A stretch of DNA of 25,533 nucleotides from an uncultured Anaerolineaceae bacterium (GTDB lineage: Bacteria > Chloroflexota > Anaerolineae > Anaerolineales > Anaerolineaceae), in assembly GCA_964612325.1 (NCBI GenBank), contig CAZTEP010000001.1:1-25533 (forward strand), in the 5' to 3' direction. This document shows, piece by piece, positions 23,579-25,532 of the stretch (the stretch's first letter is position 1; each line of letters opens with the position of its first letter). Under the pieces are notes generated by a model. That model had not been told where the DNA came from, ran no database searches, and saw nothing but the letters and a program-made list of their open reading frames with translations. The position numbers were made by a program, and so were the translations under genes.

Positions 23579-24553
23579 CTACCAGTCACGGCTGGTTGCC
23601 ATCACCGGCGCGGTGTCACGATAATTAGGCCCACTTGGCGCGATAATTTCCTTCTGCACGGTTTCATAGAGGATATCGCCACGCAGTTCATCAACGGTAT
23701 AGCAAACCGCGCCCATTTGGTCCGCCAGGCGTTGCGCCAGTCCAGCATCAAAGACCTTTTGCTCCATGTTAATCACCACGCTGTGAATCTTCTCGCGTTT
23801 GAACATGCCCGCCAGTTCCTCAAGCTCTTGGGGCACATTGCGCCCGGGCTGATACGCCACATTGCCGGCGCCATCGGTCAGCACAATGAGCAAGGGCTGC
23901 ACATCGGGGTGCAAAATCTTTTCGCGCTGCACCACCTCATAAGCCATCACCAAACCCGCCGCGAGCGGTGTTTTGCCACCAATGGGTATGTTTTCCATAG
24001 CACGTTGAGCCAAAACCACCGAGTTGGTGGGCGAAAGCACCAGCGTGGCACGGTCTTTTTGGAAGACCACCAATCCCACCCGGTCGCGCCGCTGATAGGC
24101 ATCAGTCAGTAAGGATAAAATCGCCGCTTTCGTTGCCGACATGCGCTCAGATACCGCCATCGACCATGAGCCATCCACCAAGAACAGAATCAGGTTGGCA
24201 GTTTTTCGCATGCGAATTTTCTTTTGGAAATCTGCCGAACGTACCGCGAACGCCACCTTGTTGCGCGCTTTTAGCTCTTTGCGTTTGCACTGATAAGGCG
24301 CGGCAGCACGCAATGTGGCATCAAAGGCGATATCAGTGGTATCTCCCGGCGCGTGGCGCGCGGCGATATAGCGACCGCGTTTGGTTTTCGAGCGGGTTTG
24401 CGAGCGCCGACCGCCCTGTTTGCGCACCATTTCGTCCAGCGGCGTATCAAGCTGACGCGGCTCAAAGGTTTCACCCGCTTCAATCACCTGTCCGCCATCC
24501 CACCAATGCGCGTCGAGCGTAGTGAAAATATCCTGTTGGCTTTCACCCACCAA
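23579..24553 (-). CDS. chlD: vWA-domain protein equivalent to the C-terminal half of ChlD-type chelatase medium subunits
   Basis: DIAFDATLRAAAPYQ, MIDAS DGSWS, GGKTPLA, LTDGAGN. The same frame stays open upstream of TTG 24553 to 24616 (KKSNPLAEGEIQPEISPDEIP). Confidence 0.88.
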   Translation of the reverse strand: MVGESQQDIFTTLDAHWWDGGQVIEAGETFEPRQLDTPLDEMVRKQGGRRSQTRSKTKRGRYIAARHAPGDTTDIAFDATLRAAAPYQCKRKELKARNKVAFAVRSADFQKKIRMRKTANLILFLVDGSWSMAVSERMSATKAAILSLLTDAYQRRDRVGLVVFQKDRATLVLSPTNSVVLAQRAMENIPIGGKTPLAAGLVMAYEVVQREKILHPDVQPLLIVLTDGAGNVAYQPGRNVPQELEELAGMFKREKIHSVVINMEQKVFDAGLAQRLADQMGAVCYTVDELRGDILYETVQKEIIAPSGPNYRDTAPVMATSRDW

Positions 24554-24605
24554 AGGGATTTCATCCGGGGAGATTTCCGGCTGGATTTCGCCTTCAGCTA
24601 AAGGG

Positions 24606-25532
24606 TTACTTTTTTTTTATCAGATTCGTCTGGCGCGGCGTTGTCGCTCTCTTCTTCGGGATATTCCGCCACCGTGCTGAGGGCTTTAGCCCATCGATTT
24701 TCGTGTTGAGCGTTTCGATACCCACGCCACTCTTGCGGAACGGGCCGGCCTTAACACGATGGGGCAGTGCCAATTCAGCCGCTATGCCAATATCCACCGG
24801 CGAAATGCGTCTGCGTCCGCCAAACGCGGCCTGAGCGCGCGCTCCTTTTAGAATGACCATATCCGAGCGATGCCCGTCAACTTCCATTGAGGAAGTCAGT
24901 TCCGCGATCAAGGTCAGGTCGCGTTGAGTATAGCTAACTTCATCCAACAGATACTGCGCGGCTTTGATCTTGTCGCTTAGTTCCTGTTCTTTGTGTGTCC
25001 AATTCGCCTGAAAAACCACAGGGTCTGCCTCAAAAGCGATGTTACGGCGCATGATTTCAACACGTTTTGATTTATCCATAATGCCATGGATATCCACCGA
25101 AAAAGCAAAGCGATCCAAAAGCTGCGGACGTAAATCACCTTCTTCGGGGTTCATCGTGCCCACCAGGATAAAGCGCGCCGGATGGCTAAACGAAATGCCC
25201 TCGCGCTCAACCACGTTCACGCCCATGGCGGCGGAATCCAGCAGGATATCTACCACATGGTCATCCAGCAGGTTGACCTCGTCGATGTAAAGCATGCCAC
25301 GGTTCGCCGCTGCCAGCACGCCAGGCTCAAAATGACGCTCACCCAGCTGGATGGCGCGTTCAATGTCCAGTGTGCCCACCACACGGTCTTCGGTGGCGGA
25401 AACAGGCAGGTTGATGAAGGGCGTCTTGCGAGTTTCGGTGGGCAGGGGGTTCTCGCCGGCTTCAAGTCGCTCAAGGCACTCCATGCAGAAGCGGCTCGGG
25501 TGTGCGGGGTCACATGCAAAGCGACAGCCTTT
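24606..25532 (-). CDS. chlI: ChlI/ChlD-type AAA+ ATPase domain, 5' end beyond the window edge
   Basis: ATEDRVVGTLD, GVLAAANRGMLYIDEVNLL (Walker B), GTMNPEEGDLRPQLLDRF, VDGHR, LALPHR. The frame is open upstream of the track's ATG 25484 to the edge (KGCRFACDPAHPSRFC). Confidence 0.9.
   Translation of the reverse strand, partial: KGCRFACDPAHPSRFCMECLERLEAGENPLPTETRKTPFINLPVSATEDRVVGTLDIERAIQLGERHFEPGVLAAANRGMLYIDEVNLLDDHVVDILLDSAAMGVNVVEREGISFSHPARFILVGTMNPEEGDLRPQLLDRFAFSVDIHGIMDKSKRVEIMRRNIAFEADPVVFQANWTHKEQELSDKIKAAQYLLDEVSYTQRDLTLIAELTSSMEVDGHRSDMVILKGARAQAAFGGRRRISPVDIGIAAELALPHRVKAGPFRKSGVGIETLNTKIDGLKPSARWRNIPKKRATTPRQTNLIKKK
24610..24618 (-). other. A9 slippery run joining the AAA+ and vWA reading frames (candidate programmed frameshift site)
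   Basis: mRNA GAU-AAAAAAAAA-GUAACCCUUUAG. The vWA frame is closed by UAA at 24619-24617 and is open from 24616. The other two frames stop 2 and 10 nt after the run. Confidence 0.72.

Follow-up and report, generated by a model that had tools for sequence, protein, structure and literature searches.

The locus described here is encoded on the minus strand, close to the right-hand edge of a 25,533-nucleotide (nt) stretch of DNA from an uncultured Anaerolineaceae bacterium (contig CAZTEP010000001.1, assembly GCA_964612325.1). We refer to the whole of this stretch as the window; the 5' end of the gene in question lies beyond position 25533. Two adjacent frames meet at the locus: (i) an upstream frame encoding a ChlI/BchI-type AAA+ ATPase, and (ii) a downstream frame encoding a linker, a conserved DAHWWDGG segment and a von Willebrand factor A (vWA) domain. 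Our analysis indicates that these are, very probably, the two halves of a single chlD-type class I chelatase gene, which occupy different reading frames and which programmed recoding, at a conserved U-A9-G sequence, brings together.

The junction between the halves is a run of nine A's, preceded by T and followed by G (Table 1). This A9 run is the only homopolymer of at least 8 nt in the window. An A9 run is in itself unremarkable: dinucleotide-preserving shuffles of the window contain a mean of 3.14 A9/T9 runs, with at least one in 89 of 100 shuffles. It is the location and conservation of the run that far exceed chance, not its mere occurrence. On the 5' side of the run, the vWA frame is closed by a UAA that shares the run's first two A's; in orthologues, the upstream stop of this frame lies 1-273 nt before the run. 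On the 3' side, the vWA frame is open through 21 codons before the TTG that gene callers choose as its start (this TTG and the adjoining GTG are codons 21 and 22 after the run), and a GGATG at 24566-24562, 8 nt 5' of the TTG, is a weak Shine–Dalgarno (SD) candidate. Both of the other frames run into stops within 12 nt past the run. All of these elements—the run, the overlapping UAA, the 21 open codons, the weak GGATG and the stops in the other frames—had been described in an earlier, sequence-only reading of the window, and each is present on the minus strand where that reading placed it. The Walker B motif of the ATPase frame can be read within the window, while the Walker A motif falls beyond the window's edge and is found in a sibling contig of the same species (L001).

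Table 1. Coordinates of the features discussed in the text, as positions in the 25,533-nt window (MIDAS, metal ion-dependent adhesion site; ORF, open reading frame).
Feature	Position	Strand	Remarks
A9 run, candidate recoding (slippage) site	24610-24618	-	T before, G after; homologous A9-A11 run in 80/80 relatives
UAA closing the vWA frame 5' of the run	24617-24619	-	shares the first two A's of the run; identical UAA in L001
ChlI/BchI-type AAA+ ATPase frame as read in the window	24606-25533	-	stop TAA 24606-24608
Walker B motif (LYIDEVNLL) of the ATPase frame	25266-25292	-	read in the window
A3 in place of the A4 of ten near-identical contigs (1-nt deletion)	24685-24687	-	exactly one gap against each of L001-L010
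TAG ending the ATPase ORF in the ancestral (sibling) frame, third frame of the window	24598-24600	-	9 nt past the run; ...DESDKKKVTL, stop
21 vWA-frame codons from the run to the called TTG, KKSNPLAEGEIQPEISPDEIP	24554-24616	-	homologous peptide in orthologues; translated linker rather than intergenic spacer
TTG picked as vWA start by gene callers	24551-24553	-	not conserved
vWA-frame ORF (linker, DAHWWDGG segment, vWA domain)	23579-24616	-	stop TAG 23579-23581
WWDGG of the conserved DAHWWDGG segment	24491-24505	-	in vWA-frame ORF
MIDAS residues	DGSWS 24161-24175; T in GGKTP 23966-23980; D in LTDGAGN 23861-23881	-	in vWA-frame ORF
Low-GC ORFs	20732-21370, 21617-22276, 22308-23576	+	no firm Pfam match; one faint Reg_prop
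Glycan operon, long and tightly packed	418-20610	-	NeuB-family, cytidylyltransferase and exporter genes
Two NeuB-family nonulosonic-acid synthases	2041-2949, 11415-12497	-	in glycan operon
Two CMP-sugar cytidylyltransferases	2925-4178, 8891-9697	-	in glycan operon

An exact look-up of the 324-amino-acid (aa) vWA product returned ten sibling contigs (L001-L010) from independent samples (Logan, ENA and NCBI). These are 99.4-99.9% identical to the window, and over up to 12 kb aligned they differ from it by a single indel: a stretch of four A's in the siblings (GGGCTAAAAGCCC) is reduced to three in the window (GGGCTAAAGCCC). The deletion lies within the linker, 67 nt 5' of the A9 run, and puts the last 25 ATPase codons out of the ancestral frame. 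The ATPase frame of the window ends in PSARWRNIPKKRATTPRQTNLIKKK and a stop, as compared with an ancestral ALSTVAEYPEEESDNAAPDESDKKKVTL and a stop; the latter, a typical acidic ChlD-type linker, is present in the third frame of the window upstream of the run. In all ten siblings a 372-aa ATPase ORF crosses this acidic linker, reads GAU AAA AAA AAA GUA ACC CUU UAG, and stops 9 nt past the run. Relative to the ATPase frame, the vWA frame is -1 in the ten siblings and +1 in the window; the latter arrangement exists because of the 1-nt deletion.

With the deletion, the short product has a different C-terminal tail, and the long one requires a shift in the other direction. The sequence-only reading, which missed the deletion, had named A_AAA_AAG/A as bacterial -1 sites. 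A -1 shift does not join the two frames in the window itself, where they are +1 apart and a -1 ribosomal shift leads only to KKKVTL and a stop. If the deletion is no assembly error, the window as given could yield a long product only via transcripts that are short of one A, or via a +1 slip of the ribosome, which is rare. It may be such an error, or it may be a real allele. Elsewhere, A3 is seen in one contig only (L091; ENA ERZ28614609, scaffold_59173, 1944 nt, equivalent to window positions 23590-25533). The first base of this contig coincides with the end of the window, and 1705 nt of identical sequence are followed by 11 differing sites in the last 240 nt. L091 appears to be a branch of the same assembly that represents a strain variant; it probably comes from the same data set as the window, and hence offers no independent support for A3.

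Fused at the run, the sibling ATPase ORF and the vWA frame make up a conceptual product of 712 aa. The fusion matches the Pfam families Mg_chelatase, AAA_lid_2, AAA_5, VWA and VWA_2, the first three of which are also matched by the sibling 372-aa product. The NCBIfam model TIGR02442 ('putative cobaltochelatase') aligns with the fusion in a single stretch, from model position 1 to 641 of 641, at 762.4 bits (trusted cut-off 779.45); TIGR02031 (BchD-ChlD) scores 426.9 bits (cut-off 499.55) and TIGR02030 (BchI-ChlI) 403 bits over residues 7-330. Since the TIGR02442 and TIGR02031 scores lie under their cut-offs, the name cobaltochelatase is unwarranted, though close. Against the PDB, the ATPase half matches ChlI (8osf, 6l8d) and BchI (1g8p) with E values of 1e-88 to 1e-97, and the vWA half matches the C-terminal domain of BchD (2x31_A; E 5e-17). 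The vWA domain is preceded by an acidic/Pro-rich linker, the acidic stretch of which is visible in the sibling frame. Both domains are intact, with Walker B and MIDAS in place, and the two halves are under purifying selection. Collinearity with a single-polypeptide model, together with two relatives that are naturally in frame (see below), shows the fusion to be the likely intended long product. An exact look-up of the 712-aa fusion in a collection of 15 billion proteins returned no match, which means only that no assembly carries an in-frame version. The family searches gave no AAA_3/MoxR match to the ATPase, the best matches being ChlI/BchI families. The MoxR-like AAA+/vWA role that the sequence-only reading had entertained thus finds no direct support, the ATPase being of ChlI/BchI type by Pfam, NCBIfam and PDB matches; a chaperone-like role is possible by analogy only.

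A scan of Anaerolineaceae/Anaerolineales metagenome-assembled genomes (MAGs), with one genome per species, yielded 80 loci with 59-96% identity in the vWA part. The comparative set used hereafter also numbers 80: 79 of the scanned loci (L060 was excluded, its junction being missing) and L001 for the window's species. An A-run of at least nine lies at the ATPase/vWA junction in 80/80 loci, the outcome of the ortholog check that the sequence-only reading had named. The run is A9 in 70 loci, A10 in eight and A11 in two. Only two other A/T runs of at least nine occur in 847 kb of DNA flanking the loci. Of the lysine codons in the rest of these ORFs, 53% are AAA and 47% AAG; usage being about 1:1, AAA AAA AAA is not accounted for by codon bias. 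A T precedes the run in 75/80 loci, irrespective of codon phase, and a G follows it in 61/80; what is conserved is U-A9-G and not the A9 by itself. These controls show that nucleotide-level selection acts on the run. The codon phase is AAA_AAA_AAA_G in 50 loci and GUA_AAA_AAA_AAG in 22.

Relative to the ATPase frame, the vWA frame is -1 in 72/80 loci, +1 in six and in frame in two (L071 and L078, which are natural single ORFs). In the 78 loci that are out of frame, the ATPase frame stops 0-54 nt past the run. Of the six +1 cases, L069 and L077 are long-read MAGs that also carry a further indel upstream. Within the window's own species, the ten sibling contigs, from different samples, all carry A9, with no length heterogeneity. 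Among the relatives, runs of unequal length occur in close neighbours: L016 and L057 have A11, L070, L087 and L078 have A10, and L071 has A9. Close pairs that differ are L017 (A9) and L016 (A11), L080 (A9) and L078 (A10), and L071 (A9) and L070/L087 (A10). With these differences, some loci would need a correction of the +1 type. Evolution may truly have toggled which product is standard, or the MAGs may contain homopolymer errors.

The vWA frame bears the marks of translation from the run onward. Across all loci, its peptide can be aligned from inside the run—where it begins KKS[DE]... in the close clade and KKKV[IV]TE... in the distant clade—to an invariant WW[DE]GG...PR.LDTPLD segment. Over the first eight codons past the run, pairwise differences at codon positions 1/2/3 in the closest clade are 0.21/0.00/0.51, and over the whole linker they are 0.19/0.11/0.52. 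A third-position excess that sets in with the first codon past the run is the signature expected of a translated frame. An independent start for the vWA half, or its translational coupling to the ATPase half, was considered and rejected. Between the run and WW[DE]GG, 51/80 loci contain no ATG, GTG or TTG at all, and only 9/80 have a start codon accompanied by an SD-like sequence. The TTG and GTG of the window are both missing from the sister species L011-L015 (90-96% identity); the TTG that the sequence-only reading called annotated is absent even from the closest sisters. Public gene calls for the vWA half place its start inconsistently (giving products of 301, 323, 324 or 328 aa), at times within the conserved segment. 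The scarcity of start codons and the inconsistency of the gene calls leave independent initiation untenable as a general explanation.

The core proposal of the sequence-only reading—recoding that yields a short product resembling ChlI alongside a long one of AAA+-linker-vWA architecture—is well borne out by the comparison: the run in 80/80 loci, the codon periodicity, the 51 startless loci, the two in-frame relatives and the end-to-end match of the fusion all argue for it. In the normal locus, represented by the sibling contigs and by 72/80 species, standard decoding would give a small subunit of ~372 aa that ends 9 nt past the run. Some decoding events would move into the -1 frame at the run and give a long subunit of ~712 aa (...DESDKKK/SNPLAEGE..., with the slash at the frame change), in which the same ATPase is followed by the vWA domain. 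In this way the motor of a ChlI/ChlD-like complex and its adaptor could come from one gene, at a fixed ratio. A two-subunit model of this kind was reportedly proposed for frameshifted chlD (fs-chlD) by Antonov in 2020. The comparison shows the anatomy of the locus, its conservation, a vWA frame that is coding from the run onward and the lack of an independent start; from these we infer two products, a ratio between them and, with less confidence, the polymerase that slips.

Two routes into the vWA frame would result in identical proteins. In the first, RNA polymerase slips on A9 and adds one A to part of the transcripts; we lean, at slightly better than even confidence, towards this being the main route. 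In the second, ribosomes shift by -1 on A_AAA_AAA (close clade) or A_AAA_AAG (distant clade); as an alternative or a contributor, this route deserves serious consideration, although we rate it below slippage. A classical -1 programmed frameshift by ribosomes only, with no part for the polymerase, is possible and somewhat doubtful. Both heptamers are canonical bacterial -1 sites, exactly -1 is what 72/80 loci require, and the chlD family is described in terms of ribosomal frameshifting (PMC9227772, PMC3711429). Such a heptamer leaves unexplained the retention of all nine bases in either codon phase: no A outside the minimal heptamer varies, not even at synonymous positions such as the third of GUA/AUA in 22/22 phase-2 loci. 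Nor is the direction of the shift constant: the opposite one is called for in four loci (with A10 or A11) and in the window, and two loci require no shift. The rise in efficiency with run length in E. coli suits slippage at least equally (PMC3711429).

Stimulators of frameshifting are likewise not conserved. In the 60 nt past the run, no stable downstream structure was found in the 80 loci (mean z +0.59, none below -2), in a test that uses mononucleotide shuffles of these 60 nt only and could miss a pseudoknot; with no excess stability, a downstream hairpin or pseudoknot was set aside as a candidate stimulator. An upstream SD-like element was set aside too. An SD-like 4-mer is present in 24/80 loci (30%, vs 11% background), a mild enrichment which could be read in favour of the ribosome and is likely a by-product of the GAG/GAA-rich codons of the linker; the element is not conserved.

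Apart from the pseudoknot that the folding test could miss, several points count against the explanation as we have set it out. Firstly, with the window's frames +1 apart, a simple -1 model fails for the sequence as given. Secondly, A_AAA_AAA and A_AAA_AAG are both good -1 ribosomal sites, such that comparative data cannot separate the mechanisms, and published work on the chlD family speaks of ribosomal frameshifting with downstream structures as usual (PMC9227772). Thirdly, some of the exceptional run lengths, found in long-read MAGs in which other indels occur (L069, L077), are possibly errors. Finally, that two products are made in this organism is itself deduced from sequence comparison.

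Three further explanations were weighed. In the first, replication slippage at the A-run would toggle the long subunit on and off within populations, as a form of DNA-level phase variation. The close relatives with different run lengths (L017/L016, L080/L078, and L071 vs L070/L087) are what such a switch could produce. A switch should also leave many assemblies in the ON state; instead, the -1 out-of-frame state is fixed in 72/80 species, and the run is of uniform length in ten contigs of the same species from different samples. We regard phase variation as very improbable.

In the second, the locus would consist of two ordinary adjacent genes, a chlI-like gene and a vWA gene initiated separately (at the TTG at 24553, or by reinitiation past the upstream stop), with the A-run merely encoding lysines. 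Every public record annotates the locus in this manner, and the window does offer a TTG/GTG pair with a weak GGATG upstream. Beyond the 51 startless orthologues, the nine with an SD-like sequence and the absence of the TTG from sisters at 90-96% identity, the 21 codons before the TTG evolve as vWA-frame coding sequence, the gene-caller starts (301-328 aa) disagree and some fall inside the conserved segment, and a gene that uses AAA and AAG about equally elsewhere has no need of nine A's for its lysines. This explanation is more improbable still. The least credible is an artefact or decay, namely a continuous A10 ORF mis-called at an error-prone homopolymer, or a decaying pseudogene: the window does have one indel missing from its siblings, two relatives (L071, L078) are in frame and two long-read MAGs have extra indels, but A9 recurs in ten independent assemblies of the same species (Logan, ENA, NCBI) and in 70/80 species with the same out-of-frame arrangement, and both halves have intact domains, with Walker B and MIDAS, and are under purifying selection.

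The gene stands by itself, and its neighbours give few clues to a partner. In a sibling contig, the upstream region holds unannotated membrane/secreted proteins and, farther away, mevalonate-pathway genes. No adjacent neighbour of the chelatase gene is conserved across the 80 loci. Gene neighbours were considered as a pointer to a partner and discarded: only the mevalonate-pathway genes recur (18-19 loci), and they do so several kb upstream with variable genes in between. In the window's species, no CobN or ChlH lies within 10 kb up- or downstream. Among the 19 frames of at least 700 aa in the ±6 kb flanks of the 80 loci, CobN-Mg_chel has no match in the nine that were scanned, and the remaining ten were inspected by eye over their first 50 residues only. 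The nine scanned frames encode SIR2-like, SNF2 helicase, SbcC/Rad50-like, Ig-domain surface, WD40 and ClpB-like proteins and GGDEF sensors. With CobN/ChlH not found within 6-10 kb of the gene, the caution of the sequence-only reading, which had left the partner open, was justified. A more far-reaching interpretation, which we consider unlikely, is that the strictly conserved U-A9-G of Anaerolineales acts via polymerase slippage, and not via the ribosomal frameshifting that the literature assumes, and that the complex serves a client other than a tetrapyrrole chelatase for lack of CobN/ChlH in these genomes. If that were true, the A3 of the window would be a real, tolerated allele, with both products made by slipping in the opposite direction (A8 transcripts).

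Downstream of the gene in the window are three low-GC ORFs and, beyond them, a large glycan operon. The low-GC block (window positions 20500-23576) has a GC content of 35-43%, vs 53-57% for the chelatase gene. It is missing from the sisters L013-L015, where an HTH_24 gene comes at most ~0.6 kb after the vWA gene, and it looks like a species-specific insertion. In addition to the genes listed in Table 1, the glycan operon encodes a GT2 protein, two Capsule_synth proteins, methyltransferases, epimerases and a Wzm/Wzt ABC exporter. A gene for a large GAF-GGDEF sensor sits a short way downstream of the vWA gene, on the opposite strand, in the distant clade of Anaerolineales (L063, L068, L072, L076, L079, L083-L086). 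Its domains were confirmed in L063, L068 and L079, and in the others are presumed from similar N-termini; this recurrent neighbour is not present in the window's clade.

Recoding of this kind is already published for the gene family, including for Anaerolineaceae that lack a large subunit, and the present case differs in detail only. Antonov 2013 described a magnesium-chelatase cluster with -1 frameshifts at poly-A runs, one Chloroflexi genus among its members, confirmed shifting in E. coli, and noted that RefSeq lists two genes and that fused homologues exist (PMC3711429). In that work, the share of shifted product in E. coli was 10%, 40% and 63% for chelatase cassettes carrying 7, 9 and 11 A's, respectively, and downstream structure was not shown to be necessary at the poly-A sites (PMC3711429). 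Kuznetsov, Milenkin and Antonov 2022 extended the collection to 169 frameshifted chlD genes, naming Anaerolinea thermophila, Ornatilinea, Longilinea and Levilinea as carriers within the Anaerolineaceae (PMC9227772). They also described Brevefilum fermentans, a member of the Chloroflexi with fs-chlD and neither the large subunit nor the B12 or chlorophyll pathways, in which the function is unknown (PMC9227772). The sequence-only reading was right to invoke reports of programmed frameshifting at A-rich sites in chlD (PMC3711429, PMC9227772).

What the present locus contributes is, in the first place, a corrected annotation: the public 'AAA/ATP-binding protein' and 'VWA domain protein / Mg chelatase subunit D' would be one recoded gene, with predicted products of about 41 kDa and about 78 kDa. 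Beyond this, 80 species-level examples are added, with an unusually clean signal—an exact A9, in two codon phases, without RNA stimulators—and the clade is therefore well suited to deciding between transcription and translation as the level at which chlD is recoded. With no large subunit nearby, the question posed in the literature stands, namely what role a ChlI/ChlD complex plays in anaerobes without CobN or ChlH.

The closest known counterpart is fs-chlD itself. The locus combines a ChlI/BchI-type AAA+ domain, a vWA domain with MIDAS, split frames at an A-rich site and a conserved signal. As in fs-chlD, the order is ChlI-like AAA+, linker and vWA; the A-rich slip site lies between the halves, with a 0-frame stop just after it; the relation of the frames is mostly -1; public annotation splits the halves into two genes; and there are relatives fused in frame. 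It differs in four respects: (i) it has no detectable downstream stimulatory structure, a feature described as usual for the family (PMC9227772) that does not strictly define it, (ii) it has a strict U-A9-G in two codon phases, (iii) the window copy has an upstream 1-nt deletion that reverses the required shift direction, and (iv) the TIGR02442 score is slightly below the trusted cut-off (762 vs 779 bits).

Two dnaX genes provide mechanistic parallels. In Thermus thermophilus dnaX, an A9 run leads to transcriptional slippage (PMC3711429). As is predicted here, that run lies inside the gene and yields two subunits of a single AAA+ assembly, one short and one long, with no need of RNA stimulators. 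However, dnaX encodes a clamp loader of an unrelated protein family, and there the long form is standard and the short form arises from slippage, whereas here the short form would be standard in most species. The parallel with E. coli dnaX is that the GUA_AAA_AAA_AAG of the distant clade contains the A_AAA_AAG heptamer, and that the logic of two products is alike; E. coli dnaX, however, needs an upstream SD-like element and a downstream hairpin, neither of which is conserved here.

At the level of the proteins, the likeness is to the motor-adaptor pairs ChlI/ChlD (BchI/BchD) and CobS/CobT of ATP-driven chelatases (bioRxiv 10.64898/2026.07.21.739949), although a ChlH/CobN partner is not in view at this locus. 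The ATPase resembles ChlI/BchI, and the vWA half resembles the C-terminus of BchD, with its MIDAS intact. In true ChlD, the N-terminal AAA+ domain is a diverged copy that is encoded apart from ChlI; here, by contrast, the long product would carry the very AAA+ module of the short product.

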